DNA of 64,000 bases from Planctomycetota bacterium. Lineage in GTDB: Bacteria; Planctomycetota; JACQVV01; JASMLP01. The position numbers were made by a program, and so were the translations under genes. Below the pieces are notes generated by a model. It saw only the letters and a program-made list of their open reading frames with translations. It searched no databases and was not told the origin of the DNA. Location of the stretch: positions 11,862 to 75,861 of the forward strand of contig JASMLP010000135.1 of NCBI GenBank assembly GCA_030748635.1. Direction: 5' to 3'. Positions within the stretch are counted from its first letter, which is position 1; every line of letters begins with the position of its first letter. Below are positions 2,489 through 31,238 of this stretch, one piece after another.

Positions 2489-4003
2489 ATGACGACAAAC
2501 TTACCTGCAACCGAAAACGTCTTTCCGCCCCGAACTCAAACCCTTTTTCTGGCCCTCATCTTGTTGCTGGCCATCGGTCCCCGTCTTCTCCATCTCGATC
2601 ACGCGAGTTTGTGGCTTGACGAGGTGATGAGTGTCCTGCGCGCCCGCCCCACCCCCAAAGCCGGAGCCGGCGATGTCATCCAGGCGGTCGCCAAACACGA
2701 CGCTCATCCCCCCCTCTACTACTTGCTTCTGCATCCGTTCATCCAAAAGGATGAGCATGCCCGCTCCCCTTTCATGATCCGACTCCCCTCCGCTTTAGTG
2801 GGTATCCTGTCGGTCTCGATCTTCTTTGCGATCGCACGCATCGGATTGCCTCCCCCGTGGGCCTTTTGGGCTACTTTACTTTTCGCCAGCAACGCATTTC
2901 AGATCTATTTTTCTCGTGAAGCGCGCCACTATGTCCTGGCAACTTTCCTGATTCTCCTGGCACAGTTCGCCTTCCTGATGGCCATGCAAAAACCCAGAGC
3001 CCGTGGATTTTGGATTCTGTACGGACTCAGCATCACTCTTGCAGGGTATACCTTCTACTACACCCTGTTCTTACCCTTTTGCCACCTCCTCACCTGCATC
3101 CAAAAACCGGAATGGCGTTCCCGGCTACGGCCGCTGATCTCCACCTGGACCAGTTCGGCATTCCTCCTCCTTCCGTGGATAGGAACCGTAACCTTGAATC
3201 GCCTGGAACTGGCCAAGGAATCTGCCGTTGGCTGGTCATTTCCTTACCACACCTGGTCTCTTCCAGAGGCCTTTCTTCAGTTTTTCACCTCACCAACGTG
3301 GGAAGTTCAAAACCACGTGGGACTTCAATGCATGGCCCTCGCTCTCTCTCTTCTTCTCTTGAGTAGCGCGATCACCGCTCTGAGGCTTCGTCCAATATTC
3401 GGAGTATCAACCGTTTTGTGGGCATTCCTCCCGCTCGCGCTGATTGTCCTCATCCCTGTGCAAGGACATCAGTTCGACTCCAAACATCTCGCATTCACAG
3501 CTCCCGCCCACATCCTTCTGGTCTGCGCCCTCCTGTCAAAATCCCCCTCACGACTCTTCGCATCATTTCTTTTTGTCACCCTTCTTCTCCTCAATGTAAT
3601 CAGTAGCTCTGAACTCCTCTCCCCTTCGTTCGAGAAAGAAGACTGGAATCGAGTCGCGGAATACATTTATGAGGAAGAAAAATCGAGTTTTGCCATCACC
3701 ACAGCTCCGGATTATCTGCTCCACCCACTAGGCCACGCACTTCGCCGAAACATCCACCTCCAGGATTCCAGACCCGAGACTCGGATTCCGCTCTTGCTCC
3801 GTCCAGACGATCCGAGACTTTCTCAGCGTCCCCAGATTCTGGTCCTGGCCACCCCATTCAGCCCAGTCGCTCCCCTCTCACCCTGGATCGATGAACTTCA
3901 CTCTCGACTGTCCGCCTCCCACCGACTGGTTCAGCGTCAGGAGATCCCAGCCAATCGAAAAGAAGGCTTCATCCACCTTTTCACCTGGACCAAGAAACCG
4001 TGA
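2489..4003 (+). CDS. Integral-membrane glycosyltransferase, ArnT/PMT-like (GT39/GT83-type, undecaprenyl-phosphate-sugar dependent)
   Basis: 504 aa polytopic membrane protein with many hydrophobic helices. The N-terminal loop with LWLDEVMS resembles the PMT_2/ArnT family. The stop overlaps the start of the next, paralogous gene (4000/4003). Confidence 0.55.
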   Translation: MTTNLPATENVFPPRTQTLFLALILLLAIGPRLLHLDHASLWLDEVMSVLRARPTPKAGAGDVIQAVAKHDAHPPLYYLLLHPFIQKDEHARSPFMIRLPSALVGILSVSIFFAIARIGLPPPWAFWATLLFASNAFQIYFSREARHYVLATFLILLAQFAFLMAMQKPRARGFWILYGLSITLAGYTFYYTLFLPFCHLLTCIQKPEWRSRLRPLISTWTSSAFLLLPWIGTVTLNRLELAKESAVGWSFPYHTWSLPEAFLQFFTSPTWEVQNHVGLQCMALALSLLLLSSAITALRLRPIFGVSTVLWAFLPLALIVLIPVQGHQFDSKHLAFTAPAHILLVCALLSKSPSRLFASFLFVTLLLLNVISSSELLSPSFEKEDWNRVAEYIYEEEKSSFAITTAPDYLLHPLGHALRRNIHLQDSRPETRIPLLLRPDDPRLSQRPQILVLATPFSPVAPLSPWIDELHSRLSASHRLVQRQEIPANRKEGFIHLFTWTKKP

Positions 4004-5694
4004 CAGGCCGATCCCAAAAACGTGAAAAGATGATTCACTACCTGGGGATCTTGATATCCGCTCTGACCGTGCGTGTCTTCACAGCGCATGCCCGTCTTGT
4101 TGTCCCGGAAGATTCGGTTCATTACATCGACCTGGCACGGGATGTCACTGAAAACGGTTTGGGCCCCCTTCTCTCCCACTCCTCTCACCCTCTCTATCCG
4201 TTGCTTCTGGCGGGTACCCAGTGGGTCACTGGCGACTTTCTACTTGCGGGCCGAATCCTGGGAATCGTTCTCGGAGTTCTCGTGGTTCTATCCATAACAG
4301 CCAGCACACGTCTGCTCTTTGGAAGTACCGCCAGCTTCTTTGTCGGTATGTTTGCCGCCCTTTCTCCTTATCTCGCCAGGCAAGCTGGCGAGATACTTCC
4401 GGAACAACTCTCCGTCGCGTCGGCGTCCCTGGCCCTATATTTCGTTCTTCGAGCAGAGCGGAAACACTCCCTCATCTTCGCAGGACTAGCCGGCATCTTC
4501 TCGGGCCTATTCTTTCTCACCCGTCCGGAAGGTCTGATTTTCCCATTCGGACTTGCTCTGGGACTCTCCATCCCCTTCATTCGAACTCGATCTTGTCAAC
4601 AGAATCTGCTGCCGCCGCTGTCCCTTCTTCTTGGATTCACCTTGGTCGCCAGCCCTTACTGGATCGCTCTCAGTCTCGACAATGGATACCCCACACTCTC
4701 TCGTCGAAAGATCGAACGCATTTTCAGCACCTATCGGTTTCAAGATCAGATGAGTCCCCCGGTACGAGCTTTCCCCGAACCCCGCCCCGCCCCACCACCG
4801 TGGTATCAACGAGAGCAACACCTTCTCTCCAGGTTGAGACATCTCCTCAAGCCTTCGACTCCCGGTTCCGCCCGAAGTGATCCCTCGGTTTGGCTCCTAT
4901 CGACCCCCACTGGTCCGCTCATTCATTACCCAGGAAAACAGGTCAAACAAACCATCCACTCCACTCTTTTACAGAGTCGCCATCAGAGGAAAAAGACTTT
5001 CGAATTACCCAAAACGATTTTTGAAGCCTGTCACCCCATTCTTTTCCTGCTAGGCTTATGGGGCCTTTGGGGGGCGCTTCGAGGAAATTGGCCAGCTGGG
5101 CGGTCCGTCCTGATCACCTCGATTGGCCTCCAGATCCTCCTCCTGTCCATGGTCAATTTTCAGCAAGGTTATCTATCCCGACGACACGCTCTGGTCTTTG
5201 CCGTCATCTTCTTGCCTTGGTCCGGGATCGCTTTCCAGAAAGGTGTTCGAAGGATCTTTTCTTCTCTGAATTTCCCACGTCCTCGAAAAGCGCTCTGGAT
5301 CTCCTTCGCGCTCGTCCTGGCCATCCTCAGCGGAAAAACCCTGAAGGTAAAGGGAACGAGTAACCTCTCGGAACGCCGGGTGGGTGAATGGATCGCGACC
5401 CACTCCCCGAACCAGAAGCTGTTAACCAATGTCACACGAGTTGCCCTCTATGCCAAATGCCCCTACGAACGACTCCCCACGCAAGGGGGGTATGCTCAAC
5501 TTCTCCGGATCTGTCTGGAAAAGGAGATCGACCTGATTGCGGTGGCGGGAGAAGGGTATTTCCTCATTGAAAGACTCGTATCATTCCAGTGGTTGATTCC
5601 GATCGATACCGAATCTTCCCCTCCCGGCGAGAGAGGAAAGCCGGTACACCTCTATCGGGTTCGTTTCCCAACCCAAACCGACAGAGGATCCTAA
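4000..5694 (+). CDS. Second ArnT/PMT-like integral-membrane glycosyltransferase (paralog of upstream gene)
   Basis: 564 aa polytopic membrane protein. The first periplasmic loop carries EDSVHYIDLARDV, the conserved acidic loop typical of PMT_2/ArnT-family GT-C enzymes. It is translationally coupled to the upstream paralog. Confidence 0.6.
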   Translation: MTGRSQKREKMIHYLGILISALTVRVFTAHARLVVPEDSVHYIDLARDVTENGLGPLLSHSSHPLYPLLLAGTQWVTGDFLLAGRILGIVLGVLVVLSITASTRLLFGSTASFFVGMFAALSPYLARQAGEILPEQLSVASASLALYFVLRAERKHSLIFAGLAGIFSGLFFLTRPEGLIFPFGLALGLSIPFIRTRSCQQNLLPPLSLLLGFTLVASPYWIALSLDNGYPTLSRRKIERIFSTYRFQDQMSPPVRAFPEPRPAPPPWYQREQHLLSRLRHLLKPSTPGSARSDPSVWLLSTPTGPLIHYPGKQVKQTIHSTLLQSRHQRKKTFELPKTIFEACHPILFLLGLWGLWGALRGNWPAGRSVLITSIGLQILLLSMVNFQQGYLSRRHALVFAVIFLPWSGIAFQKGVRRIFSSLNFPRPRKALWISFALVLAILSGKTLKVKGTSNLSERRVGEWIATHSPNQKLLTNVTRVALYAKCPYERLPTQGGYAQLLRICLEKEIDLIAVAGEGYFLIERLVSFQWLIPIDTESSPPGERGKPVHLYRVRFPTQTDRGS

Positions 5695-5759
5695 AAGACA
5701 CGAAACCTCTGGAGAAAAGAAGTTGAATTCACCCTTGCGCAGGGGATAAATAACAATCG

Positions 5760-6536
5760 ATGTCACCCCACCCCTCACCACTTCCCCGCCATGTTGCGGT
5801 CATCATGGACGGAAACGGCCGCTGGGCACAAAACCGCGGCCTCCCCCGACTCGCTGGCCACGAACGAGGAGCTCGTAGTGTACGCAAAGCGGTGGAACTG
5901 CACCGAGAGTTGGAGATTCCTTACCTGACACTCTATGCCTTCAGCACCGAAAACTGGAAACGCCCGGACCAAGAAGTCCTTGGGCTGATGGATCTGTTAG
6001 CTCACTGGGCCGAGTCCGAACGCCAGGAACTCATCGACCAGCAGATTTCGATGCACCTTATCGGTGAACCTCACCGCCTCTCTCCTCACGCCCTCTGTTC
6101 TCTCAACGAAACCGTGCGAGCCACAAAACGCCCGGATCCCATCACCACCTTGACGCTGGCTCTCAGTTACGGAGGACGCTCCGAAATCACCCGCGCAGCC
6201 GCTTCGATCTCTGAACAGGTTCAGTCCGGAAACCTCCGTCCCGAAGATCTTCAGGGTCCTGAAGGCGAACAGTTGTTCTCGTCCTTTCTGGACACCGCGC
6301 CTCTGCCCGACCCTGATCTGGTCATCCGTACCGGTGGAGATATCCGGATTTCCAACTTCTTGCTCTTTCAATCCGCTTACAGTGAGTGGTTCTTCCGACC
6401 AGAACCCTGGCCATCATTCGGCAAACACCACTTCCTGGAGTGTTTCGAGGAGATGGCTCAAAGAGTCCGGAGATTCGGCCAGACAGACGACCAGCTACTC
6501 CTCTCCACCGAACCTGAAACTCCTCCCAGTCCGTAG
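5760..6536 (+). CDS. uppS: Undecaprenyl-diphosphate synthase (isoprenyl transferase)
   Basis: Hallmark motifs are present: HVAVIMDGNGRWA, YAFSTENWKRP, RTGGDIRISNFLLFQ. Confidence 0.9.
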   Translation: MSPHPSPLPRHVAVIMDGNGRWAQNRGLPRLAGHERGARSVRKAVELHRELEIPYLTLYAFSTENWKRPDQEVLGLMDLLAHWAESERQELIDQQISMHLIGEPHRLSPHALCSLNETVRATKRPDPITTLTLALSYGGRSEITRAAASISEQVQSGNLRPEDLQGPEGEQLFSSFLDTAPLPDPDLVIRTGGDIRISNFLLFQSAYSEWFFRPEPWPSFGKHHFLECFEEMAQRVRRFGQTDDQLLLSTEPETPPSP

Positions 6537-6583
6537 CGATACGTCCGGCTACAAGATTATTCCCACATTTCAGGATCGCGACT

Positions 6584-6916
6584 TCAGGAGACAGAAGATC
6601 CGTTGGCCAACGGTTTGTCAGGCGCCAGCAAAGCGATGGTCCCTTCAGGATCGGAAGCGGCCAGGAGCATACCCTGCGACTCGACCCCTCGAATCACCGC
6701 CGGTTCCAAATTCACCACGACCACGATCTGCCTACCCAGGAGGGAATCGGGCTCATATTGCCCCCCAATACCGGCAACTAGCTGACGAGAAGACTCTCCC
6801 AGATCTATTTCCAGCCGTAACAATCGGTCTGTTCCCGGCACCCTCTCCGCAGCCTGAATCGTGGCAACCCGAAGAGAAACTTTTCCGAATTCTTCAAAAC
6901 TAATCGCTGTGGACAC
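6584..6916 (-). CDS. Stand-alone tRNA-binding domain protein (CsaA / Myf / MetRS C-terminal-like)
   Basis: The C-terminal 110 aa of the 284-aa ORF (ISFEEFGKVSLRVATIQAAERVPGTDRLLRLEIDLGE...VVVVNLEPAVIRGVESQGMLLAA...LLAPDKPLANGSSVS) match the CsaA/EMAP-II fold motifs. I place the start at a GTG at 6916, preceded by AGGAGG 5 nt upstream. The N-terminal extension of the computed ORF is low-complexity and I reject it. Confidence 0.75.
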   Translation of the reverse strand: MSTAISFEEFGKVSLRVATIQAAERVPGTDRLLRLEIDLGESSRQLVAGIGGQYEPDSLLGRQIVVVVNLEPAVIRGVESQGMLLAASDPEGTIALLAPDKPLANGSSVS

Positions 6917-7206
6917 GAGATCCTCCTGTATCAATGATTCCACCGGACAAGAGAATACGAATCGACCCACCTCGATACAACACACGACTCGGCAGGAGTA
7001 TTGGACAAACCGATTTTCGAACGCATTTCCTTCGTACCAGACATTCTCATCAAAACAGCCCTTCGGTGGGAAATTCGACTCCTCCTCGAATTTTGACAGC
7101 CATAGACGCCACCGATACACTGACCCTTCACATTCCACCCGAAACATGACGGTGGTAGTCATCGATTTCACTCGTCCCAAGGGTCTCCTCGACTCCAGGC
7201 AATACG

Positions 7207-10200
7207 ATGTCCGACCCTTCGAAAACCGAATCATCCAGCACTCGATCGACGGTCCCTCCTCACCAGGATCAGCGATTTGAAAAAATTGTTTTACGGAACG
7301 ATCTCCTGAGTCCGGAAACACTAGGTGAAGCTCGCACTCGGTGGAACAAGCAGTGCCGTAACGGCTCGACCCAGTCCTTTCCTGAGATGCTTGTCGCCGA
7401 GGGACATATAACCACCAAGCAAGCCGCAGCCATTTCAAAGCGCCTGGTACGCCAGATCGCTGGTTACGTCCTGCTCGACAAGATCGGTGTTGGAGGCATG
7501 GGAGCCGTCTATCGAGCGGAACAAAAAAGCCTGGACAAGGTTGTGGCTCTCAAAATCCTTCCTGCCAAACTCGCCGCTGATGAGGATTTCATCAAACGGT
7601 TCGAGCGGGAAGCTCAATCCCTGGCGAAACTCAACCATCCTCATATCGTCCAGGCAATCGACTTTGGCAAAGACAAGGGCCTCTACTACATTTCGATGGA
7701 ATATGTTCCCGGCCAGAGCCTTCTCGACCTGATGAAGAGAGAGAACAAACTTTCCGAAATTCGTGCACTCGAGATCGCGCTTCAAATCGCGATGGCCCTC
7801 GAACATGCATGCGAACACGGCGTGATACATCGGGACATCAAACCGGAGAATATTCTGCTGACCGAGGAGGGAGATGCAAAAATCACCGACTTCGGACTCG
7901 CCAAGGAACCGGAAGCGGGAAACAACGCATTCCGAACAACCGCAGGCCTGACCTTCGGCACCCCCCACTACATGTCACCGGAGCAGGCGGAAGGCCTACC
8001 CGACCTAGACACCCGATCAGACATCTATTCTCTCGGCGCAACTCTCTACCACATGTTGACCGGCAAAACCCCTTTTCGCGGGGATAGCGACGCCGAAATC
8101 ATGACCATGCACCTCGACGCCGAACCCGATGACCCGAGACTGTACTGCCCGGATCTATCCAGCCCGACCGCTACGATGCTCCGCAAAATGATGGCCAAAC
8201 GTCCACGATCTCGTTACCAGCATCCTCATGAAGTATCGCAAAGCATTTTGAAAATTCTTAGCGATGAATTCTCCAGCAGTCAACTCGATCTTCTTACTCG
8301 GCTTCCTTCAGCCACCGGAAAATCTTCCAAGCGCATCCTCCCCACGACCCTCTCCGATTCCAGAAAACCGATTCCCCCTCAACTCACTCTGGCCCTCGCA
8401 GGCGTCATCCTGGCAGGTGTACTTGCAATCGTAATTTTCTCCAACCGATCAACCCCTCCCCCCCCCTCCCCGACTCCTCCTCCCCCCCTCCCATCTGCTC
8501 CCTTGATCGGCATCAATCCGGAATCTCAGGATTTAACTCCTCAAGAACTTCAGGAACGAAATGCCCAAGATCTGTGGAAGCAATACCAAGCCGAGATCAA
8601 AAACTCGCGAGATCACCCTCAACATTCGCTCGAGATCTTGGACCAGATCGTAAAGCTCCATCCAGGACGCTGGGCCGACCAAGCACTTCAAGAAAAGAAG
8701 AGCCTCCTGAGTCAGATAAAATCGGACCAGGCGTTACAACCCCTTACCGCCCGGACGAACACCCTGATCAAGCAACACCAATACGCGAAAGCGATTCACT
8801 TGCTTGGCAGTTTCCAGAAGCAATACCCAGGAACTCCGGCGTCCGAAACTGCCAGCCAACGTATTCTGGAAATCAGATCCTTCTGGAACCGAAGTATCGA
8901 TGAATGGCTCGAGAAAGCCCGCGAATCAGAAAGCAAGGGGGATCTGCAGAATGCGCTGTCGCTCTATGCGCTCCTCGAAATACACGGAAATGCCGAAGGC
9001 CAATCCCTCGGCAAGGCCAACCGTTTGCGGATTCAAACGCTTCGAAATACGCCCAAAAAGAATCCCCTCCAGAAGGAACCTCCAAAACCTTCACGCGGCC
9101 AACCCGACCCCGGCCCCCTCTACGCCAAACTCGTCAACGCTCTCCTCGAGCCCGTTCGATCCCGGAAATACAACGGTGCCCTCCAATTCCTTCAAAGTAT
9201 CGAGGCCGACAGCAACCGAACGCCAGAACACCCGGCCGCCTCCCAACTCCACCAGGACCTCACCAGCATCCAGTCCGTTCTGGAAAAAGCCTCCGAAGCG
9301 TTAAAAAACAACGCCCCCCCTTCTCGAGCTTTTTACATCGATGGTTCTCGCCGCATCCTGGATTCCTTCCGAGACAACCGACTTCACTGGCAACGAAAAT
9401 CACTACCTACCCCCTTATCCGAGCTTCCCACCCGCTACCTCGCGGAACTCGCCGAAACCGGAGGAGCGTCTCCGAAAAGCCTTGGACTCTTCTTGATAGC
9501 CGAAGGCGTTTCGGAAGTCGGACAAGAGATGCTCGAGAAGGCTCAGGTCCCCCAAGCGGAAAAGTCCTGGCGGATTCGTGACTGGTGCGCCCTTCGAGAC
9601 CGCAATCATCCTCGTGAAACCGAAGCGGCCGAGATCGTCCGCTCTCTGCGCAAATCTATCCAGAAGAATTCGTGGAAAGCTTCTCGCCCTCCGATGAGGC
9701 TGATCCGAACCCAATATGCCGACACTTATACAGCGACCCGAGAAGGCGCAGAACTCTGGGATCTTTATCTCGAAATGGGCGCGAAATTATATCCGGTAAA
9801 AAAATTCTTCTCCGGCTCGACCACACAAACGAATCAATCCGTCAAGATCCAGTACCTCTTCACCAAGGAGAACCACCGCCAGGACTGGCGATCAATAGGA
9901 GGAAAAACCTGGACTCCGAGCCCCAAAGGCTGGCACGGAAAAGGAAAGATCCTGCTGCAAAGAGGACACTGGAAAGAAGTTCTGGTCAGTGCGCGCTGGG
10001 AAGCTCACCCCAACCGTGGAGCCGCAAGCATTCTCTTTGGATGGCAAGATCCGGAAAACTACTACTTTTTCGGTCCCCAGTACGATAACCAGAAACTGAA
10101 CACATCACATTTCCACTACGATGAGAACGTTGACAAGTCCATCCCGAAACCTCTGAAAGGCCGCACAACCCAGAAACCTTTCCGAGGATTATTCCCCAGC

Positions 10201-10902
10201 AAAAGCACGCGTCACATCGCGAGAGTCCGCACTCGGCCCAAAGAGATCACAACCTACATCGGCCAAGCCATCGTCAACAAGATTAACGAGCCGAATCCAA
10301 CGGAAGGGAAAATCGGCTTTACCTCCACGAGTTTTCGCATTCTGGAACGGGTAGAAATTGTCGGGACCCTGAACTCCGAATGGAAAATTCAGAAGTCGAA
10401 AACCCTTGTCCTCGCTGAAGAACTGATGGAAGAGTTTGGCTTTTCCAGCGGCAACTATCGATCCGGCTTCCAGGCGACCCTCTACAATTCCACGACCCTC
10501 GATTCCATGAAAGAAGTGCGTCTTGATCCCAGGATCGAATTCAACTGGAATGAAGATCGCCCCTCTCCCAAGCTTCCCGCCGACCGATTTTCTATTCGTT
10601 GGAATGGACACCTCCTGATCCCGAAATCGGGCACCTATGAATTTCAAACCCGCAGTGACGACGGAGTCCGCCTGTACCTGAACAACAAGCGGGTCATCGA
10701 CCACTGGGACCAACATGGGCCAGAAAAGGACTCTTACCGAATCCACCTCGAGCAAGGCCTGGTCCCCATCCAACTGGAATATTTTGAACAGGGGGGAGGA
10801 GCGACGATTTCTCTACAATGGAAATGGGCAGAACAGTCCGAGTGGATTCCCGTTTCCTGGCCCTATATCTTCGTACTCCAGCCATCCAAGACCCGACGAT
10901 GA
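7207..10902 (+). CDS. Transmembrane Hanks-type Ser/Thr protein kinase with extracytoplasmic TPR-like, lectin-like and PA14 domains
   Basis: 1231 aa. The N-terminus has a T2SS-E-N/MshEN-like helical motif (LLSPETLGEARTRW...MLVAEGHITTKQ). It is followed by a kinase core (GVGGMGAVYRA...VALKIL, HRDIKPENILL, DFGLA, GTPHYMSPE). One TM helix (LALAGVILAGVLAIVIF) is followed by a Pro-rich linker and a long TPR-like region. The C-terminal PA14-like domain reads RFSIRWNGHLLIPKSGTYEFQTRSDDGVRLYLNNKRVIDHWDQHG. Confidence 0.85.
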   Translation: MSDPSKTESSSTRSTVPPHQDQRFEKIVLRNDLLSPETLGEARTRWNKQCRNGSTQSFPEMLVAEGHITTKQAAAISKRLVRQIAGYVLLDKIGVGGMGAVYRAEQKSLDKVVALKILPAKLAADEDFIKRFEREAQSLAKLNHPHIVQAIDFGKDKGLYYISMEYVPGQSLLDLMKRENKLSEIRALEIALQIAMALEHACEHGVIHRDIKPENILLTEEGDAKITDFGLAKEPEAGNNAFRTTAGLTFGTPHYMSPEQAEGLPDLDTRSDIYSLGATLYHMLTGKTPFRGDSDAEIMTMHLDAEPDDPRLYCPDLSSPTATMLRKMMAKRPRSRYQHPHEVSQSILKILSDEFSSSQLDLLTRLPSATGKSSKRILPTTLSDSRKPIPPQLTLALAGVILAGVLAIVIFSNRSTPPPPSPTPPPPLPSAPLIGINPESQDLTPQELQERNAQDLWKQYQAEIKNSRDHPQHSLEILDQIVKLHPGRWADQALQEKKSLLSQIKSDQALQPLTARTNTLIKQHQYAKAIHLLGSFQKQYPGTPASETASQRILEIRSFWNRSIDEWLEKARESESKGDLQNALSLYALLEIHGNAEGQSLGKANRLRIQTLRNTPKKNPLQKEPPKPSRGQPDPGPLYAKLVNALLEPVRSRKYNGALQFLQSIEADSNRTPEHPAASQLHQDLTSIQSVLEKASEALKNNAPPSRAFYIDGSRRILDSFRDNRLHWQRKSLPTPLSELPTRYLAELAETGGASPKSLGLFLIAEGVSEVGQEMLEKAQVPQAEKSWRIRDWCALRDRNHPRETEAAEIVRSLRKSIQKNSWKASRPPMRLIRTQYADTYTATREGAELWDLYLEMGAKLYPVKKFFSGSTTQTNQSVKIQYLFTKENHRQDWRSIGGKTWTPSPKGWHGKGKILLQRGHWKEVLVSARWEAHPNRGAASILFGWQDPENYYFFGPQYDNQKLNTSHFHYDENVDKSIPKPLKGRTTQKPFRGLFPSKSTRHIARVRTRPKEITTYIGQAIVNKINEPNPTEGKIGFTSTSFRILERVEIVGTLNSEWKIQKSKTLVLAEELMEEFGFSSGNYRSGFQATLYNSTTLDSMKEVRLDPRIEFNWNEDRPSPKLPADRFSIRWNGHLLIPKSGTYEFQTRSDDGVRLYLNNKRVIDHWDQHGPEKDSYRIHLEQGLVPIQLEYFEQGGGATISLQWKWAEQSEWIPVSWPYIFVLQPSKTRR

Positions 10903-11819
10903 CTGAGCAATGTATTGAAATTCGCGACCACCAGATAGTCATACTGGATCTCAACCCGGATCGACTGGACGCCGCTCTTCGAGAACACGAGACCGACTGG
11001 CTGCCACGCGCCACCCCAAACGCCACTCTTATCGTCTCGGAGATTGACGACCCACTGCTCCCCCAAACACTTGGAGTGATCGCTGAGTGCTGCCGTCGAG
11101 CAGTCATCGCCGGATTCCGAATCCACGTTCAGGTCACTCCAGAGCAGCAGCAAGCTTTCGAGCGGGCGGGAGCTCGAGATCTGACCTTTCGGGTCGTCTC
11201 CAGTCCGAAAAAGTCGACTGAAAAGTCACCTTCCACCGTCCTCCCCGCCGTTCGTGCCCAGAAGCCAGAAGCTTCCTCTCCGGCGAGTCCAAATCCACTG
11301 ACATTTCTCAAGGCCGCAGCCTCCATCGACGATCTCGCTCCTGACGAAAAGGGCAATATCACTCTTTTTTTGACCAACATGCCCGATCTGGATGACCGTG
11401 AATCCCAGATCCTCTCCCCCTTGGTCGTCTCTCGCGAGCGATCTAAATATTTCGGTCGCCAAGAGAAGGAACCGGAGCGTAGAGACACCATGCGTCGAAA
11501 TATCGGAGACGCAATAGTCCTTTTTCGTGCCGGGCCAGAAGGAAAAGATTGGCGCGGCCCCGTACTCGATCTCTCCGCGAAGGGGATCCAGTTCATCACC
11601 GACCAGAATCTCGAATTGGGGGATAAGGTTCAGGTCGCCCTCGATCTTCCCAGCATGATCGAAAAGCTCACTTCAGAGGGGAAGGTTATCTGGAAACGCA
11701 TCATCGAAAAAAAAGGGAAAACCTTTTACCGGATTGGCGCCAGTTTCGTATCTCCCTCTCGATCCTTTGTGGAAAAGCTACTCGAGAAAATCGGAGACTC
11801 CGAGCCTCAATCCTCCTGA
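10899..11819 (+). CDS. STAS-like N-terminal domain fused to C-terminal PilZ (c-di-GMP binding) domain
   Basis: I place the start at the ATG at 10899, which overlaps the kinase TGA as ATGA. The PilZ motifs are RRDTMRR (the RxxxR motif) and DLSAKGIQF (the DxSxxG motif). The N-terminal ~100 aa (IVILDLNPDRLDAALRE...RIHVQVTPEQQQAFERAGARDLTF) resemble a STAS/anti-sigma-antagonist fold. Confidence 0.6.
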   Translation: MTEQCIEIRDHQIVILDLNPDRLDAALREHETDWLPRATPNATLIVSEIDDPLLPQTLGVIAECCRRAVIAGFRIHVQVTPEQQQAFERAGARDLTFRVVSSPKKSTEKSPSTVLPAVRAQKPEASSPASPNPLTFLKAAASIDDLAPDEKGNITLFLTNMPDLDDRESQILSPLVVSRERSKYFGRQEKEPERRDTMRRNIGDAIVLFRAGPEGKDWRGPVLDLSAKGIQFITDQNLELGDKVQVALDLPSMIEKLTSEGKVIWKRIIEKKGKTFYRIGASFVSPSRSFVEKLLEKIGDSEPQSS

Positions 11820-12566
11820 ATCGAGTCGAGACACAAGGCGTGGAAGAAGTTCACCGGCCGCTCCACAAAGTGTGATATCAGCTACCGAGTCGCTGAGACC
11901 CGTTCGCTCCAAATTGATTTCCACGACCGGGATTCCGCGGGAAGAAGCGATACGTGGCAGTTCCGCAAACGGCCACACTTCGGCTCGGGTCCCGATGACC
12001 AGAACCAGATCGGCTGTATCGACCGCCTCCCGTCCCTGCTGGAGCGCCCTTTGAGGAATCAATTCCCCGAAAAGGATCACATCCGGTTTGAGTATCGCCC
12101 CACAAGAAGGACAGGGAGGCGGAATCTGATGCCCTCTCTGTGCATGTTCCACCCGATGCGAGCAATCCAGACAGACCAGCGTTCGCCCATTCCCGTGATA
12201 TTCGATTACATTACGTGAACCGGCCGCCTGATGCAGGCCGTCGATGTTCTGGGTCAGGATCCAGCGAACGATCTCCTTCTCCTGAAGTTCGACCAGGGCG
12301 CGGTGAGCCGGATTCGGGCGAGCACCCAAAACAACCTCTTCGAGTTCCGCCAGCATGCGCCAGACCTTAGGCGGATCCCGCCGAAAGGCCTCTATCGTCG
12401 CATACTCCTGAGGATCAAACCGCTCCCACAGCCCGCCGCGACCGCGAAAATCGGGAATACCGCTCTCCACGGAGATACCTGCACCAGTCAGAGCCAGAGC
12501 GTTCCTGGCCCCTGCCAGAAGCTCGACCGTTCGACGAAGCGCTTCCTGCGGATCGGAGGCGTCCAT
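11778..12566 (-). CDS. cobB: NAD-dependent protein deacylase, Sir2 family
   Basis: Motifs GAGISVESGIPDFRG, TQNIDGLH and a CxxC...CxxC zinc ribbon are present. The 3' end overlaps the convergent PilZ gene by about 40 bp. Confidence 0.9.
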   Translation of the reverse strand: MDASDPQEALRRTVELLAGARNALALTGAGISVESGIPDFRGRGGLWERFDPQEYATIEAFRRDPPKVWRMLAELEEVVLGARPNPAHRALVELQEKEIVRWILTQNIDGLHQAAGSRNVIEYHGNGRTLVCLDCSHRVEHAQRGHQIPPPCPSCGAILKPDVILFGELIPQRALQQGREAVDTADLVLVIGTRAEVWPFAELPRIASSRGIPVVEINLERTGLSDSVADITLCGAAGELLPRLVSRLDSGGLRLGVSDFLE

Positions 12567-12578
12567 TCAGATGTCAAA

Positions 12579-12935
12579 TCAGGCGGTAGCTGCGGATCGT
12601 GCCTTCTCGAGAAGCTGAGTAAAACCCTCGGGATCGTGCACCGCCATTTCGGCGAGCATCTTCCGGTTGACCGGAATATTCGCGTCTTGTAGCGCGTGAA
12701 TAAACGCGGAATAGGTCATCCCTCGCTCGCGTGCGGCCGCTCCAATCCGCTCGATCCAGAGTGTCCGAAAATCCCGCTTACGAGTCTTCCGGTCACGATA
12801 AGCAAACGCTTCGGCACGAACAACGGTCTCTTTAACGGTGCGCCAGAGCTTACTCCGACCGCCTCGATATCCCTTCGCTGCACGAAACCACTTCTTTTTT
12901 TGTTGCCGGCGTACCCGACCCTTTGTCGCTCTCAT
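12579..12935 (-). CDS. rplT: 50S ribosomal protein L20
   Basis: MRATKGRVRRQQKKKWFRAAKGYRGGRSKLWR is a canonical L20 N-terminus. Confidence 0.95.
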   Translation of the reverse strand: MRATKGRVRRQQKKKWFRAAKGYRGGRSKLWRTVKETVVRAEAFAYRDRKTRKRDFRTLWIERIGAAARERGMTYSAFIHALQDANIPVNRKMLAEMAVHDPEGFTQLLEKARSAATA

Positions 12936-26091: not shown

Positions 26092-26958
26092 ATGAGTCCT
26101 GATGTAGGATCCATCGCTTCAGCGAATCAGACCGTTCCTGATGGAACGACTGATCGCGTCGCTGAAGATCAAGCCACGCAACGTTACGCGTTGCTGGAAG
26201 ATCTTCGTGTTCTCACCCGAAGCCAGCTTTCCCAAGCCCTCGACGCCACCGGCGAAGTCGTTAGTGATCTCGAACGAGTGGGCGAAGGTATTCAAGACAC
26301 ACTCCACGATCTACGCAGTCGTATCGGCAAAGAACGAGATCTCTCGTGCCAAATCGAAGGGTCATCCCGTGATGTACTCGAACTGGCAGCCACAGGAACC
26401 GAGGAGGCCCTCCGAACCCTGTTCGATGCCCGAATCAAAATCGATGCTCTGGAGCACCAGATCAACGAACTCTGCGACCAAAACAGCGATCTCCAGCAAT
26501 CCAACCGAGAGCTCGAACAAAACCTCTCCCAGGAAAGAGAAAACAACCAGAGCCTCGAGCTACGGCAAGAGCAGTTACGCAGGCAACATCAGGAAAAAAT
26601 TATCCGTCTCCAGGAATGTATCGATCAACAAGAAACGGCTCTCGAAGAGCAGGTCGAAAAATTTCAACTCACCGCCGAGGCACTCGAAAATTCCAAAAAC
26701 GTGGAGATCGAATTTCGGAATCAACTTTCCGATCGCGACTCCCACATCGAATCTCTTCAGCAGGAGATTGCGACTCAGAGCCAATCCATTTCCGATCTGG
26801 AAGAAGAGATCGTTCAGACCCGGCGCGAAACGGCACAAGCCATCGAATCTTTCATGAACCTGGAAGAATCTCTCAAAACCGGAGCCAAAGCCAAAGCCCA
26901 TCTGCGCATTCTGTACGAAAAATCCCGTGAAGGGAAAGAAAAGACGGGAACGGCGTAA
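26092..26958 (+). CDS. Coiled-coil protein (Glu/Gln/Leu-rich), no enzymatic domain recognised
   Basis: 288 aa with continuous heptad-like, E/Q/L/R-rich low-complexity sequence. Its stop overlaps the next gene's start (TAATG). Confidence 0.55.
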   Translation: MSPDVGSIASANQTVPDGTTDRVAEDQATQRYALLEDLRVLTRSQLSQALDATGEVVSDLERVGEGIQDTLHDLRSRIGKERDLSCQIEGSSRDVLELAATGTEEALRTLFDARIKIDALEHQINELCDQNSDLQQSNRELEQNLSQERENNQSLELRQEQLRRQHQEKIIRLQECIDQQETALEEQVEKFQLTAEALENSKNVEIEFRNQLSDRDSHIESLQQEIATQSQSISDLEEEIVQTRRETAQAIESFMNLEESLKTGAKAKAHLRILYEKSREGKEKTGTA

Positions 26959-29654
26959 TGGCACAACACTCTTATCAGCGGAAAACGTCGCCAGAAGAGC
27001 CCAAAGCTCAAATCGACACCGGAGAAATCAGCCAGAACCTCGATGACGCCATTGCGGGCCTTCAGCAAATGCGCAGCACGATTCACCGATGTGAAGAGGA
27101 ACTGGACGAACGAATACGTGCCTCAGAAACCGGTCACGAAGCGGCAATCGACGCGCTCGAGTCCATCCCTGAACAATCCCAGGAGATATTGCACTCCAGC
27201 ACTTCATCGATCGACTCCATCGCAGGCACAATCGATTCGATCAGCCTTCGCACCGAGGAGGCGTTACGAACTTTTGAACAGCATTCACGCGAAGAACAAA
27301 AGTCCTGGAACATCAAAGTTCAGGATGAAAAACGTATCCGATTAGAACTCGAAGAACGTGTTCGAGCCCTGGACACCTCACTCCATGAAGCGCTCGAACA
27401 GAAAAACGAACAATTCGAAAAGCTGACCCGACTTCAAGAGATTCTGACGCATCGAGAACTCGAAGAGCGCAAGCTCGTCGAACGGATCACCCATCTTCAG
27501 GCAGAAATCGAGAAGCTTAAATCCGAACAGAACGATTTGACCCAGGATTTGCAGCGTTCTCAGATCCAACTCGAGGAATCCAATCGATCTCGATCCCAAC
27601 TTGAAAATCGACTTTCTGAAAAAGAGAGCGAACTGGATGAATCGAGGAAGCGCCTCGCTCAATTTCTGGCCGAAACCGAGGCCTCCGGACGCCCCCCAAC
27701 CGAGATCCAAATAGAGCCCACAGAAACACGCTCCGAAATTTTTGCCCTCGAGGAGAAGTACAAAAACAGTGAGGAAAAGATTCTCACCCTCACCGAAGAG
27801 CGCAACCGACTCCTGACGGAAAAAGCCAAACTCGAAAATGATCTTTCGCTTTTGCAAGCACAGGAGGCTCTCTCCCCTCCGCCGACCTCCGCCGACAAAG
27901 CCCTGCCTCCTTCAAGCACTCCCGAAGCCCAAGTCGCCCCCTACGCCCCCTCAGAAGGTGAAACAGAAGACCCGGTAGAGGAGCGAGACTTCACCCGCGA
28001 ACAGATTCATCACCTGAACGAGCAACTCACTCGTACTGAATCGGAACGCTCCCATCTGACCGGACAAATATCCAAAATGGATCACTCCCTCAGGGAGGTC
28101 AGCGAAGAGAACCAACGACTACGCGAACGCCTCGAGCAAAGAACCGACGAACTGGATGAACTTCAGAAGACAAGCGCCGACATGCTGAACCAGTCAAACC
28201 GGCGAGAAGCGCTCTCCCATTACCAAGACCAGATCGCCAAGCTTGAGCAAGAGAGAAATTCGGACACTCAAAAAATTCAGGACCTCGAAAGTCGCCTCCA
28301 AAATACCGACCAAGAGCGCGAAGAATCCTCTCGCGACCTGAATGCGACCAAAGAAACATTGCTCAATGTTTTGCGCAAAAAAGTGGACCTTGAAGTCCAG
28401 GTCCGAAAGATGCGGAATCAATCCGATCAGTTTCAGGAATTAAAGCAACAGTTCAACACGAGTCGGCATGAACGCGGCCTGGCAACCACACGCGCGAATA
28501 CCCTCAACGCCCTTCTCGCCAAGACTTTACAGAAGAAGAAAGAACTCGAACAAGAGCTACACCGTTTGCGTTCCGAACTTGAAACCAAAACCGAAGATCT
28601 GGAGCAGAATGCCAGCGGCATCGATCTTCTCCGAAACCGAGTTTCATCTCTCCAGAAAGATCGCCGTGAAGCGTCGAAGCGAGCCAACGTCCTCGAAAAG
28701 CAACTCGGCAAGAAATTTCCCGCCATGGCAGAAGCCGCCAAGATTGGGCAAGAACTCATCGAGGGCGACACTTTCAAAAAGCTTGTTTTCACTTTCGACT
28801 TTCTCTGGGACTCTCAGCAAGGATATCCACTACTGGATGTTCAGGGCCTTGGCGCCATCATTCGCAGAATCAGCGAAGGCTTGAGGCGAGACCCAGCCGG
28901 TGTTCTCGAAAGAACCAACTACACCGGACGAGGGTACCTGAAGGGACACAGCCTCGAGGTTGCCAAGCTTTCCGTCTATATCGGTATGCATCTGGGTTAT
29001 CAAGCGTCCAACCTTGAAGTCATAGGAATCGCGGCTTTGTTGCACGACCTTGGCATGATTCAGGTTCCCAGGTCTATTCTCGACAAATCCACCTCGCTGG
29101 ACGACTCCGACCGGGAAGTCATCCACAAGCATTGTGCGGCCAGCGCCTCGATTTTTCGGGAACTCGAAGTCGAAGCCAATCTTCCCTCGCAGATCGTAGC
29201 CCGAGTGATCGAAGAACACCACGAGAGGATGGATGGCAGCGGTTATCCCAACCAGAAAAAAGGCGATGAAATCCACCCATTCAGCCGCATCATCAGCATT
29301 GCAGATGCCTACACTGCCATGATTTCTCGTCGTCCTCACCGGGAAGCGATGCTTCCTCATGATGCACTCCGGACCATTCAGCAAGAAGCCCAAAGCGGGG
29401 CATTGGATCCGGAAATCGCCGAAGCTTTTACACAAGCCCTTTCCACTTTTCCCATCGGAAGCTTGGTTCAACTCTCCACCGGGGAGATCGGTATCGTTGT
29501 CACGGCCCATCCCGACGACCCCGAGCGGCCTGTCGTCCGCTTAACGGAAGGGGAAGATGGGAAACTTCTCGAACACCCCATCTACACCGATCTTTCCAAC
29601 GACCGCAGCCTTTCCATTCGGCGACCGATCGACCCTCGTTCGATCCGTTCTTGA
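26958..29654 (+). CDS. Long coiled-coil protein with C-terminal HD-GYP domain (putative c-di-GMP phosphodiesterase)
   Basis: 898 aa. About 600 aa of SMC-like coiled coil are followed by an HD domain (LLHDLGMIQVP) and HHERMDGSGYP, i.e. the HD-GYP signature. Confidence 0.8.
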   Translation: MAQHSYQRKTSPEEPKAQIDTGEISQNLDDAIAGLQQMRSTIHRCEEELDERIRASETGHEAAIDALESIPEQSQEILHSSTSSIDSIAGTIDSISLRTEEALRTFEQHSREEQKSWNIKVQDEKRIRLELEERVRALDTSLHEALEQKNEQFEKLTRLQEILTHRELEERKLVERITHLQAEIEKLKSEQNDLTQDLQRSQIQLEESNRSRSQLENRLSEKESELDESRKRLAQFLAETEASGRPPTEIQIEPTETRSEIFALEEKYKNSEEKILTLTEERNRLLTEKAKLENDLSLLQAQEALSPPPTSADKALPPSSTPEAQVAPYAPSEGETEDPVEERDFTREQIHHLNEQLTRTESERSHLTGQISKMDHSLREVSEENQRLRERLEQRTDELDELQKTSADMLNQSNRREALSHYQDQIAKLEQERNSDTQKIQDLESRLQNTDQEREESSRDLNATKETLLNVLRKKVDLEVQVRKMRNQSDQFQELKQQFNTSRHERGLATTRANTLNALLAKTLQKKKELEQELHRLRSELETKTEDLEQNASGIDLLRNRVSSLQKDRREASKRANVLEKQLGKKFPAMAEAAKIGQELIEGDTFKKLVFTFDFLWDSQQGYPLLDVQGLGAIIRRISEGLRRDPAGVLERTNYTGRGYLKGHSLEVAKLSVYIGMHLGYQASNLEVIGIAALLHDLGMIQVPRSILDKSTSLDDSDREVIHKHCAASASIFRELEVEANLPSQIVARVIEEHHERMDGSGYPNQKKGDEIHPFSRIISIADAYTAMISRRPHREAMLPHDALRTIQQEAQSGALDPEIAEAFTQALSTFPIGSLVQLSTGEIGIVVTAHPDDPERPVVRLTEGEDGKLLEHPIYTDLSNDRSLSIRRPIDPRSIRS

Positions 29655-31100: not shown

Positions 31101-31238
31101 ATCCAGAGAATTGAAGCCCTTGCGATTCACAGATAGACTTGAAGTGTCGAAGCGCGAGGGGACCAGATCCGTCCACTTTTCCCTAGACGATTCCTTGCGC
31201 CGAATATCCCTCGTTTTTACCTAACAAAAGGCTCAATA

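Follow-up and report, generated by a model that had tools for sequence, protein, structure and literature searches.

A transmembrane Hanks-type kinase and a translationally coupled STAS-PilZ protein in Planctomycetota

Described links between Ser/Thr kinases, STAS proteins and c-di-GMP

Links between Hanks kinases and PilZ domains, between Hanks kinases and STAS proteins, and between STAS proteins and c-di-GMP each have precedents. In Mycobacterium tuberculosis, the kinase PknD phosphorylates the STAS protein Rv0516c, an anti-anti-sigma homologue, at a non-consensus residue, Thr2 (PMC1847690). Here we describe a locus of comparable layout, which lies in a 64,000-nucleotide stretch (the window) of contig JASMLP010000135.1 from an uncultured member of the Planctomycetota. 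As in the PknD-Rv0516c system, the kinase is a transmembrane Hanks enzyme whose sensor lies outside the cytoplasm, and it would act on a small cytoplasmic STAS-fold protein. The phosphosite of Rv0516c is not the classical serine, and the window protein likewise starts with Met-Thr and lacks the classical serine. The two systems differ in that Rv0516c has no PilZ domain and in that phosphorylation of the window protein is something we infer, and the PknD sensor is a beta-propeller rather than a PA14 domain. We know of no description of the PknD and Rv0516c genes as a translationally coupled pair.

Other systems share different parts of the design. In Pkn1 of Myxococcus xanthus (MXAN_1467), a Ser/Thr kinase carries a fused PilZ domain (bioRxiv 10.1101/814665). 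Pkn1 functionally joins a Hanks kinase to a canonical PilZ domain that has a C-terminal helix, the same two components that lie side by side in the window, and because it holds both in one polypeptide, it lends Rosetta-stone support to the kinase-PilZ link. In the window, by contrast, the components are divided between two coupled genes, the PilZ domain is fused to STAS, and the kinase has a large periplasmic sensor. The clostridial anti-sigma-I factors RsgI3 and RsgI4 carry extracellular PA14 dyads, which are membrane-tethered polysaccharide sensors with pectin or xylan as ligands and which transmit the signal through the membrane (PMC6852018). Like the window kinase, they are single-pass membrane signaling proteins whose outer end carries PA14. 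However, RsgI proteins act through regulated proteolysis to a sigma factor, with no kinase, in Gram-positive hosts, and they have tandem PA14 modules where the window kinase has one. MshEN domains fused to Ser/Thr kinases are also on record (PMC5013675).

In the single-domain STAS anti-sigma-factor antagonists SpoIIAA, RsbV, and RsbS, and in HsbA of Pseudomonas aeruginosa, a conserved serine is phosphorylated by GHKL-type kinases, and none of these proteins has a c-di-GMP-binding domain; the window protein lacks that serine and has a PilZ domain in cis. In light of Pkn1 (bioRxiv 10.1101/814665), the MshEN-kinase fusions (PMC5013675), and PknD-Rv0516c (PMC1847690), the suggestion in an initial annotation of this DNA that the locus joins signaling layers not normally described together was too strong. 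The STAS-PilZ fusion itself appears to be previously undescribed in the literature, and the locus is a new domain combination made from known parts.

A receptor-type kinase gene overlapping a STAS-PilZ gene

The kinase gene (7207..10902, on the forward strand, as are all features below unless stated otherwise) encodes 1231 amino acids (NCBI MDP7034886.1), and the gene that follows it (10899..11819) encodes a soluble STAS-linker-PilZ protein of 306 amino acids (NCBI MDP7034887.1), which bears out the coordinates and gene structure proposed initially. The stop codon of the kinase gene (TGA) and the start codon of its downstream neighbor (ATG) share 4 nt in an ATGA stop/start overlap (10899..10902; 10896-10902, cgATGA), and this direct reading of the window confirms the suggested translational coupling. 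The junction is unchanged in an 88%-identical relative (L001), and in another relative (L011) the STAS-PilZ gene and the frame upstream of it overlap as TGATG. An alternative upstream ATG for the second gene lies at 10818; the start at 10899, which gives the 306-aa protein, is preferred because the N termini of homologues (MTEQC, MTDQC, MSDRV, and MSHPEG) agree with it, as do gene calls in four independent assemblies.

A promoter-like site, TTGACA-17-TACACT (7093..7121), agrees with the consensus at 10 of 12 positions, a comparison with the consensus only in a group whose promoters are poorly known. It lies in the 290 bp that separate the kinase gene from the divergently oriented csaA (reverse strand). 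On the other side, a convergent gene for a Sir2-family deacylase (11778..12566, reverse strand; SIR2 E value, 9e-47) shares 42 nt at its 3' end with the PilZ gene and is a conserved neighbor, being convergent also in L007 and L011. Nothing in the window or in the L007 and L011 contexts ties this deacylase to the kinase/STAS-PilZ module. Relative to the 88%-identical sequence, both genes are under purifying selection (dN/dS, 0.22 for the kinase gene and 0.23 for the second gene), and the kinase domain taken alone has a value of 0.05, the PilZ domain one of 0.08. The highest value for any kinase segment is that of the juxtamembrane region, aa 346-440 (0.44), and the extracytoplasmic helical region is second (0.34). 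Since the same window encodes c-di-GMP turnover enzymes, a REC-GGDEF-EAL protein (43568-45331) and an HD_5 protein (26958-29654), c-di-GMP would be available as a ligand.

The catalytic domain of the kinase (aa 87-341; 7465..8229) scores 190.6 bits against PF00069 (cutoff, 31.7; E value, 4e-56). The core is complete, as first annotated: the domain has the Pkinase fold of Hanks-type enzymes, the Gly-rich loop (GxGxxG at 94-99, GVGGMG), the VAIK lysine (VALK, 113-116), HRDIKPEN (208-215), DFG (228-230), SPE in the APE/SPE position (257-259), and DIYSLG (272), and it belongs to the RD kinases. Thr244, Thr245, and Thr249 lie in the activation loop, whose “FRTT” is invariant in three of three aligned kinases.

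The cytoplasmic N-terminal helical region (aa 21-86; 7267..7464) had been read as an MshEN/T2SS-E-N-like motif, a reading that did not hold. What the region shares with MshEN is a T2SSE_N/GSPII-like helix pattern only, with two helix-hairpin-like half motifs; MshEN/T2SSE_N has no Pfam match on the window kinase, and the best PDB profile matches, to the N-terminal domains of PilB and PilF, are subsignificant (E values of 0.06 to 0.7). Neither half carries the 24-residue c-di-GMP-binding motif: 8 of 11 and 6 of 11 positions agree under relaxed matching (6 of 11 and 4 of 11 under strict matching), RLG and the key Gly residues, including the turn Gly, are missing, and the spacer has 10 residues instead of 5. 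Nor does the L007 orthologue keep the first Arg.

Hydropathy predicts a single transmembrane helix at aa 393-412 (8383..8442; Kyte-Doolittle maximum, 2.8), the one segment above the threshold, as in single-pass receptors. Its flanks carry +5 charges on the N side and +1 on the C side, which predicts an N-in topology by the positive-inside rule. A Pro-rich spacer (aa 413-440; 8443-8526; 43% Pro) follows. The single helix and the large outer part of the initial annotation thus stand, with about 790 extracytoplasmic residues after the helix; however, planctomycetes are diderm, so that the PA14 region would lie on the periplasmic side, making this a periplasmic rather than an extracellular sensor.

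The ectodomain opens with a region predicted to be all-helical (aa 441-863; 8527..9795), previously called a TPR-like array. A single-sequence AF2 model is all-helical over about aa 441-861, at a pLDDT mostly <50, and TPR_14 matches one repeat (aa ~515-546) below its cutoff (E value, 0.0018; 19.2 bits versus 23.5), so the helices are retained at low confidence and the TPR assignment is tentative. Next comes a beta-rich region (aa 864-1083; 9796..10455) that is probably a divergent sandwich of the DUF1080/3-keto-disaccharide-hydrolase type (concanavalin-like). It had been annotated as jelly-roll or lectin-like, for which Pfam gives no match on the window kinase; PF06439 does not match aa 864-1083 of the window kinase itself either, but it does match the co-linear region of L007, with an E value of 6e-4 in the whole protein (20.4 bits versus a cutoff of 26.8) and 1.5e-5 when the region is searched as a fragment. 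The C-terminal PA14 domain (aa 1086-1207; 10462..10827) is firmly identified, as first proposed (PF07691 E value, 2e-26; 93.1 bits versus a gathering threshold of 24). PA14 domains are also found in non-lectin contexts. The closest solved relatives of this one are the RsgI3 dyad 6qe7 and a second PA14 dyad, 6qdi (E values, 6.5e-39 to 6.5e-47), and its DD pair at 1151-1152 is conserved in L007. By analogy with these relatives (PMC6852018), and given the conserved DD pair, the domain may bind carbohydrate.

In the second protein, predicted structure and profile transitivity support a STAS fold for the N-terminal domain (aa 1-104; 10899..11210). The structure model, built on a 5-sequence alignment, has the STAS/SpoIIAA order of elements (beta1-beta2-alpha1-beta3-alpha2-beta4-alpha3-beta5) and in structure comparison is most like RsbR, RsbS, RsbV, TM1442, and SpoIIAA; SpoIIAA is also the best PDB sequence match. 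The STAS-like domain noted earlier is therefore retained as a fold but not as a Pfam assignment: neither PF01740 nor PF13466 matches the window protein even at an E value of <=10, and the paralogue P0008 falls just short of the STAS_2 cutoff (29.1 versus 29.2 bits). The accompanying argument, that STAS domains are classical phospho-acceptors, does not transfer to this protein. The SpoIIAA phospho-Ser column holds Pro55 in the window protein and neither Ser nor Thr in any family member, and the DSSG motif is absent throughout the family. Thr57, two residues past Pro55 and within the opening turn of helix alpha2, is not consistently conserved: P0007 has Ser or Ala opposite it, according to the alignment used, and P0008 has Met and Phe.

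A variable, Ser/Pro-rich linker (aa 105-190), predicted to be disordered (pLDDT <50), leads to the PilZ domain. Alignment of relatives shows one conserved short motif within it, NITLFLTNMPDLDD (aa 153-166; 11355..11396), which P0002 and P0006 retain and P0007 retains in part (TLTLFLSS). The PilZ domain (aa 191-300; 11469..11798; Pfam PilZ E value, 6.6e-10 over aa 212-294) has the expected beta-barrel fold, a charged C-terminal helix at aa 288-298 in the predicted structure, and structural matches to c-di-GMP-bound MrkH, Alg44, YcgR, PlzA, and PA0012. The RxxxR and DxSxxG motifs, reported at the outset as intact, are present as RRDTMR at 194-199 (RRxxxR) and DLSAKG at 224-229, with no variation at R194, R195, R199, S226, or G229 across all five family members. 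From its sequence, the domain is predicted to be of the canonical, c-di-GMP-binding type.

Conserved adjacency in a small family

Searched exhaustively, 1.84 billion representatives yielded only four full-length relatives of the STAS-PilZ protein, with 88, 42, 33, and 31% identity, all from Planctomycetota; this brings the known family to five, each member coming from an uncultured MAG. Conservation of the pair in relatives had been proposed as a check, and in each relative with readable context the gene does lie on the same strand, directly 3' of a gene for a transmembrane Hanks kinase. This is the case in L001 and L002. The upstream kinase in L007 is a 1234-aa orthologue with Pkinase, DUF1080-like, and PA14 domains, and the upstream frame in L011 ends in a PA14-like C terminus. 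In L005, an 874-aa kinase (Pkinase-TM-TPR), which has no N-terminal helical module, precedes a paralogous STAS-STAS-PilZ protein.

The L005 pair sits amid genes unrelated to the window neighbors (GH172 and carbamoyltransferase), so the pairing is not a mere conserved neighborhood. Co-duplication of the pair is not supported, because the kinase domain of L005 is no closer to that of the window kinase (37% identity) than is that of the unrelated L010 kinase (36%). The gene order csaA - kinase - PilZ protein - Sir2 is common to the window and L007 and partly to L011, and with the flanking csaA and Sir2 conserved in three lineages, part of the adjacency could be inherited synteny and not selection. 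The kinase and STAS-PilZ genes are a two-gene signaling operon, found among the sequences searched in a few Planctomycetota only, and the STAS-PilZ protein is a plausible dedicated partner of the kinase.

Proposed signaling and its alternatives

We propose, with an even chance of being right as a whole, that a glycan-type ligand acts through the kinase on a phosphorylated STAS-PilZ protein that integrates c-di-GMP; each step of this mechanism is an inference, the glycan ligand and direct phosphorylation included. A periplasmic ligand, probably a glycan, would bind the ectodomain and change both the oligomerization of the kinase and the autophosphorylation of its activation loop, and the kinase would phosphorylate its dedicated partner. 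Because the classical STAS serine is absent, a non-canonical phosphosite is proposed, with Thr2, Thr57, and the linker residues Thr155 and Thr159 as candidates. The STAS-PilZ protein would combine its phosphorylation state with c-di-GMP occupancy of the PilZ domain, and the integrated state would determine which partner the STAS domain binds. The pair suggests a link between phosphorylation and c-di-GMP signaling.

An alternative hypothesis, which we consider unlikely, reverses the flow: the STAS-PilZ protein would not be the substrate of the kinase but would, depending on c-di-GMP, regulate it or act as its adaptor. Once PilZ had bound c-di-GMP, the STAS domain or the linker motif would dock on the kinase on its cytoplasmic side, for instance at the N-terminal helical module, and gate its activity or localization. 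The same adjacency and coupling support this hypothesis, as does a STAS domain without a canonical phospho-acceptor, and a conserved short linear motif in a linker is typical of a docking site. PilZ adaptors often bind partner enzymes, with a charged C-terminal helix as the interaction surface (bioRxiv 10.1101/814665), and that helix is present here (aa 288-298). However, the helical module is absent from the L005 kinase, which nevertheless has a STAS-STAS-PilZ partner, so the module is not a universal docking site, and this kind of regulation is compatible with phosphorylation rather than exclusive of it. Fold resemblance to RsbR, RsbS, RsbV, TM1442, and SpoIIAA, with SpoIIAA as top PDB sequence match, speaks for classical partner switching, as the initial annotation implied, in which the canonical serine of an anti-sigma-factor antagonist would be phosphorylated by a Hanks kinase in place of an RsbW-type kinase. 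We nevertheless consider it very unlikely, given Pro55 at the phospho-Ser position and no DSSG in any member. Moreover, no RsbW/SpoIIAB-type anti-sigma kinase, PP2C phosphatase, or sigma factor occurs among the Pfam-scanned window ORFs or beside the pairs in L005 and L007, which argues that the locus is not a classical partner-switching one.

It is also conceivable, though quite improbable, that the two genes are merely cotranscribed neighbors in a syntenic block, with no direct functional link. The four-gene order shared with L007 and partly with L011 is what such a block would look like, and chance adjacency is not negligible in planctomycetes, which encode many Hanks kinases. But the stop/start overlap has been kept or re-created in two lineages sharing only 42% identity, the L005 STAS-STAS-PilZ gene again lies directly 3' of a transmembrane Hanks kinase in a wholly different neighborhood, and the arrangement recurs in five of five family members. 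An anti-phage defense locus, with a PD-T4-6-like kinase and a Sir2 effector, is extremely unlikely, despite strong matches of the PADLOC models PD-T4-6, mad6, and MkoA to the kinase domain and the adjoining Sir2 gene. Those matches are limited to the generic catalytic domain (aa ~80-360), and neither the PilZ protein nor the Sir2 protein matches a PADLOC defense model. The neighbors are housekeeping genes (uppS, csaA, rplT, rpmI, infC, mnmG, and ssb), syntenic across distant MAGs, no mobile-element signs were found among the ORFs scanned, and the kinase itself is of the receptor type, with a large sensor in the periplasm. We rejected a PD-T4-6 or MADS defense kinase for want of a full-length match and of a defense-island context.

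Planctomycetes break down marine and freshwater polysaccharides, and to our knowledge very few of their Ser/Thr kinases have known partners. With its translational coupling, and with an adjacency kept in all known relatives, this locus is a rare case of the genome itself pointing to a kinase partner. If the proposed link between kinase and STAS-PilZ protein holds, Ser/Thr phosphorylation and c-di-GMP, two signaling systems so far joined mainly via separate proteins or kinase fusions, would be integrated by one small protein. The family is tiny, with five members, and its practical value is that of a clean two-protein system open to testing. We further speculate, while thinking it unlikely, that the STAS-PilZ protein is a coincidence detector, a STAS protein of the partner-switching type in which two inputs together would decide the binding partner: c-di-GMP, bound in cis by PilZ, and phosphorylation by a dedicated Hanks kinase that senses periplasmic glycans. 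If true, it would be the first anti-sigma-antagonist-like protein to read c-di-GMP directly, and it would tie planctomycete polysaccharide sensing to the choice between a surface-attached and a free-swimming lifestyle.

A two-gene unit and its relatives

This locus belongs to a marine Planctomycetota MAG and is best read as a module in which a receptor kinase has a dedicated partner protein. The kinase gene (7207-10902, + strand; 1231 aa; MDP7034886.1, named "protein kinase" by NCBI) runs directly into the gene for a STAS-PilZ protein (10899-11819, + strand; 306 aa; MDP7034887.1, "PilZ domain-containing protein"). The kinase stop codon overlaps the partner start as ATGA at 10899-10902, bearing out the overlap described in the initial annotation. 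The partner gene could also be read from an ATG further upstream, at 10818, but we prefer the start at 10899, which agrees with the N termini of all homologues and with how the gene is called in four independent assemblies. A csaA-like tRNA-binding gene lies upstream in divergent orientation (6584-6916, - strand), and a Sir2-family deacylase gene lies downstream in convergent orientation (11778-12566, - strand), its 3' end overlapping the pair by 42 nt; kinase and partner therefore form a self-contained two-gene unit. We located a putative promoter-like site at 7093-7121, and an Rfam search over 6500-12800 returned no c-di-GMP riboswitch or other credible RNA. Measured against an 88%-identical relative, both genes are under purifying selection (dN/dS 0.22 in the kinase gene, 0.23 in the partner gene), with the lowest values in the kinase domain (0.05) and PilZ (0.08).

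Relatives of the partner are few. An exhaustive HMMER search against 1.84 billion representative proteins recovered only four full-length relatives, the remaining matches being ordinary PilZ or PilZ-PilZ proteins; word-indexed searches turned up little besides the queries themselves, with two matches for the partner and three for the family profile. Scans of genome and metagenome loci added L007 and L008, the latter being the same contig as L005. The closest relative, P0002 (88% identity; L001/L002), follows a 1231-aa kinase on the same strand with the same ATGA overlap and has the same neighbors as in the window. P0006 (42%), on a 1.3-kb contig (L011), overlaps a same-strand upstream frame that has a PA14-like C terminus (…GGNAEVSLLWR…WPSVFSTPD-stop), and a convergent Sir2 gene lies beside it. 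P0007 (33%; L007, a groundwater MAG) has a same-strand kinase upstream, with csaA (-) upstream and Sir2 (-) downstream; this 1234-aa kinase, with Pkinase, DUF1080-like, and PA14 domains, is co-linear with the window kinase and 30% identical to it. P0008 (31%, or 27% in one alignment), from L005 in the same groundwater MAG, carries two STAS-like repeats and follows a same-strand 874-aa kinase (Pkinase-TM-TPR), among neighbors (GH172 and a carbamoyltransferase) unrelated to those of the window.

Every family member with readable context is kinase-adjacent; the proposal that the two genes are kept as neighbors held up, albeit in a family of only five sequences. Since the L005 pair sits in an unrelated neighborhood, the kinase association is independent of the csaA/Sir2 synteny block. 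Co-duplication of kinase and partner pairs is unsupported: the L005 kinase domain shares 37% identity with that of the window kinase, on a par with the 36% of an unrelated kinase. Two PilZ-only proteins (L009 and L010) were rejected as family members because they lack the STAS-like domain (hmmsearch scores ~0) and have no adjoining kinase. For P0006, the database gene call (322 aa; L011 52-1020) probably includes 15 extra codons at its 5' end; the start that corresponds to those of the homologues (MSDRVLE) is at L011 nt 97, forming a TGATG overlap with the stop codon of the upstream frame.

The flanking genes have their own pattern of conservation. Convergent Sir2 genes are kept in all three orthologous lineages (L007 6449-7324 and L011 1022-1258, both - strand, besides the window), though genes further out differ, and the 3' ends of the Sir2 and PilZ genes overlap or abut (by 11 nt in L007). 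Synteny alone might account for the conserved Sir2 gene; otherwise it may be functionally a third partner, or be kept through an effect of the antisense overlap. The csaA-like gene has a 55%-identical counterpart in the distant groundwater MAG (L007 976-1293, - strand), which gives a conserved block of csaA(-)/kinase, STAS-PilZ/Sir2(-). Just upstream of the kinase locus (2489-6536, + strand) are two tandem, stop/start-overlapping PMT_2-family (ArnT/PMT-like) glycosyltransferase genes followed by an undecaprenyl-diphosphate synthase gene, which are not kept beside the L007 orthologue. At L005 (4676-11230, + strand), a GH172-family glycoside hydrolase and a 194-aa ORF precede the kinase/STAS-STAS-PilZ pair on the same strand, a context that is possibly carbohydrate-related for the paralogue.

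Domain architecture of the kinase

Pfam identifies the kinase domain at aa 87-341 (E 4e-56) and a PA14 domain at aa 1086-1207 (E 2e-26). The catalytic motifs are all intact, and the activation-loop Thr residues are those expected of an RD kinase that autophosphorylates. A single hydrophobic helix (aa 393-412) has positive charges on its N-side and is followed by a 43%-proline spacer; the one helix and the charge distribution predict an N-in, C-out topology with ~790 extracytoplasmic residues.

Searches of aa 1-88, 430-731, and 732-1085 against Pfam and NCBIfam (E<=10) found no T2SSE_N or lectin family. The MshEN/T2SS-E-N-like motif claimed for the N terminus is not upheld: the published motif consists of two 24-residue repeats with a 5-residue spacer (PMC5013675), and the two best-fitting kinase segments agree with it at 8/11 and 6/11 relaxed positions, lack the conserved glycines, and lie 10 residues apart. 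The helical module in this region (aa 21-86) has no Pfam match, and a three-sequence profile of it matched solely PilB/PilF N-terminal GSPII domains (E 0.06 to 0.7).

Of the TPR-like array proposed for the ectodomain, the helices are present at aa 441-863 in a low-confidence, single-sequence structure model (mean pLDDT 40), but their TPR identity is weak, with one TPR_14 match below threshold. Likewise, the beta-rich region at aa 864-1083, initially described as jelly-roll/lectin-like, has no Pfam match in the window sequence, and its profile matched nothing meaningful among PDB sequences; in the L007 orthologue, the corresponding co-linear stretch does match PF06439 (3-keto-disaccharide hydrolase/DUF1080; E 1.5e-5), and by transfer a DUF1080-type domain is plausible here too. 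The C-terminal PA14 domain is solid. A whole-ectodomain profile matched PA14 structures only among PDB sequences, and the closest solved relatives are 6qe7 (RsgI3) and 6qdi, PA14 dyads of clostridial anti-sigma factors that are polysaccharide-sensing (PMC6852018). This combination of kinase and PA14 appears to be rare: apart from the query protein, the ectodomain drew just two unrelated PA14 proteins in a word-indexed search.

The STAS-like and PilZ domains of the partner

The PilZ domain (Pfam E 6.6e-10) is canonical, as initially annotated: RRxxxR (194-199) and DxSxxG (224-229) are invariant in every family member, and c-di-GMP-bound structures of MrkH, Alg44, YcgR, PlzA, and PA0012 match its predicted fold. 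The linker between the two domains (aa 105-190) is Ser/Thr/Pro-rich and predicted to be disordered (pLDDT <50). Apart from a single conserved short motif, NITLFLTNMPDLDD (aa 153-166; window 11355-11396), the linker is fast-evolving (dN/dS 0.24, dS 0.48); the motif has the look of a docking or strand-addition element.

The N-terminal ~100 residues have no Pfam STAS score, and fragments aa 1-134 and 101-200 matched no STAS family in Pfam and NCBIfam at E<=10. The initial annotation had named this very outcome as one that would count against its reading, and by Pfam scoring, taken at its word, that outcome applies; the fold itself is nevertheless supported by AlphaFold2 and by profile comparisons. 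AlphaFold2, run on the five-sequence family alignment, predicts a STAS-like beta1-beta2-alpha1-beta3-alpha2-beta4-alpha3-beta5 topology with pLDDT values of 75 to 86. Among all PDB sequences, SpoIIAA was the top match of the family profile (E 0.022, 71/105 positions). The orthologue profile aligned with the second N-terminal repeat of P0008 (hhalign probability 82%, E 1e-5), and this repeat falls just short of the Pfam STAS_2 cutoff (29.1 against 29.2 bits). Together, four independent lines put the N-terminal domain in the STAS fold despite the missing Pfam score.

The classical role of STAS domains as Ser/Thr phospho-acceptors, to which the initial annotation appealed, does not carry over. 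Where SpoIIAA carries its phospho-serine, the profile alignment places Pro55 of the partner, and none of the family members has Ser or Thr at this column. The first helical turn does contain a Thr two residues further along (Thr57), but its conservation is not robust.

Signaling models, c-di-GMP context, and precedents

In the module that we propose, a periplasmic sensor, probably glycan-binding, would control the cytoplasmic Hanks kinase, and the STAS-PilZ protein would be the cognate partner of the kinase, also reading c-di-GMP. We regard phosphorylation of the partner at a noncanonical site as the most likely link between the two; a precedent in its favor is PknD, which phosphorylates the STAS protein Rv0516c at Thr2 (PMC1847690). 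In the chief alternative, the partner is no substrate; it would instead regulate the kinase, or serve as its adaptor, in a c-di-GMP-dependent manner. With the canonical STAS serine lacking and no RsbW, PP2C, or sigma gene close to the pair, a classical partner switch is unlikely. A defense-system reading of the locus was rejected after comparison with PADLOC, in which the Sir2 protein matched no defense model.

Elsewhere in the window, a REC-GGDEF-EAL protein (43568-45331, - strand; EAL E 3e-74, GGDEF E 1e-31, REC E 3e-26) is, judging by its domains, likely a c-di-GMP turnover enzyme. An 898-aa protein (26958-29654, + strand) with a long unannotated N-terminal region and a C-terminal HD_5/HD (HD-GYP-like) domain (E 3e-34) may be a second c-di-GMP phosphodiesterase. 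Genes for DnaA (29799-31100) and DNA polymerase III delta' (31239-32261) and an 809-aa ORF with a PSP1 C-terminal domain and a class I tRNA-synthetase (MetRS-type) domain follow on the + strand (29799-34687). The DnaA region may be near the replication origin, yet cumulative GC skew falls monotonically over the window.

Every pairwise link of the locus is already precedented: kinase to STAS by PknD and Rv0516c, kinase with PilZ by the Myxococcus xanthus Pkn1 fusion (bioRxiv 10.1101/814665), kinase with a c-di-GMP receptor domain by MshEN-kinase fusions (PMC5013675), STAS with c-di-GMP metabolism, reportedly, by HsbA and HsbD (PMC5085249), and a membrane-tethered glycan sensor with PA14 by RsgI3 (PMC6852018). 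Full-text literature searches found no description of STAS fused to PilZ, and a review of PilZ architectures makes no mention of STAS or anti-sigma proteins (bioRxiv 10.1101/814665). The kinase/STAS-PilZ locus is not a new system in kind; it offers a well-defined hypothesis, open to experiment, in a phylum that has received little study.
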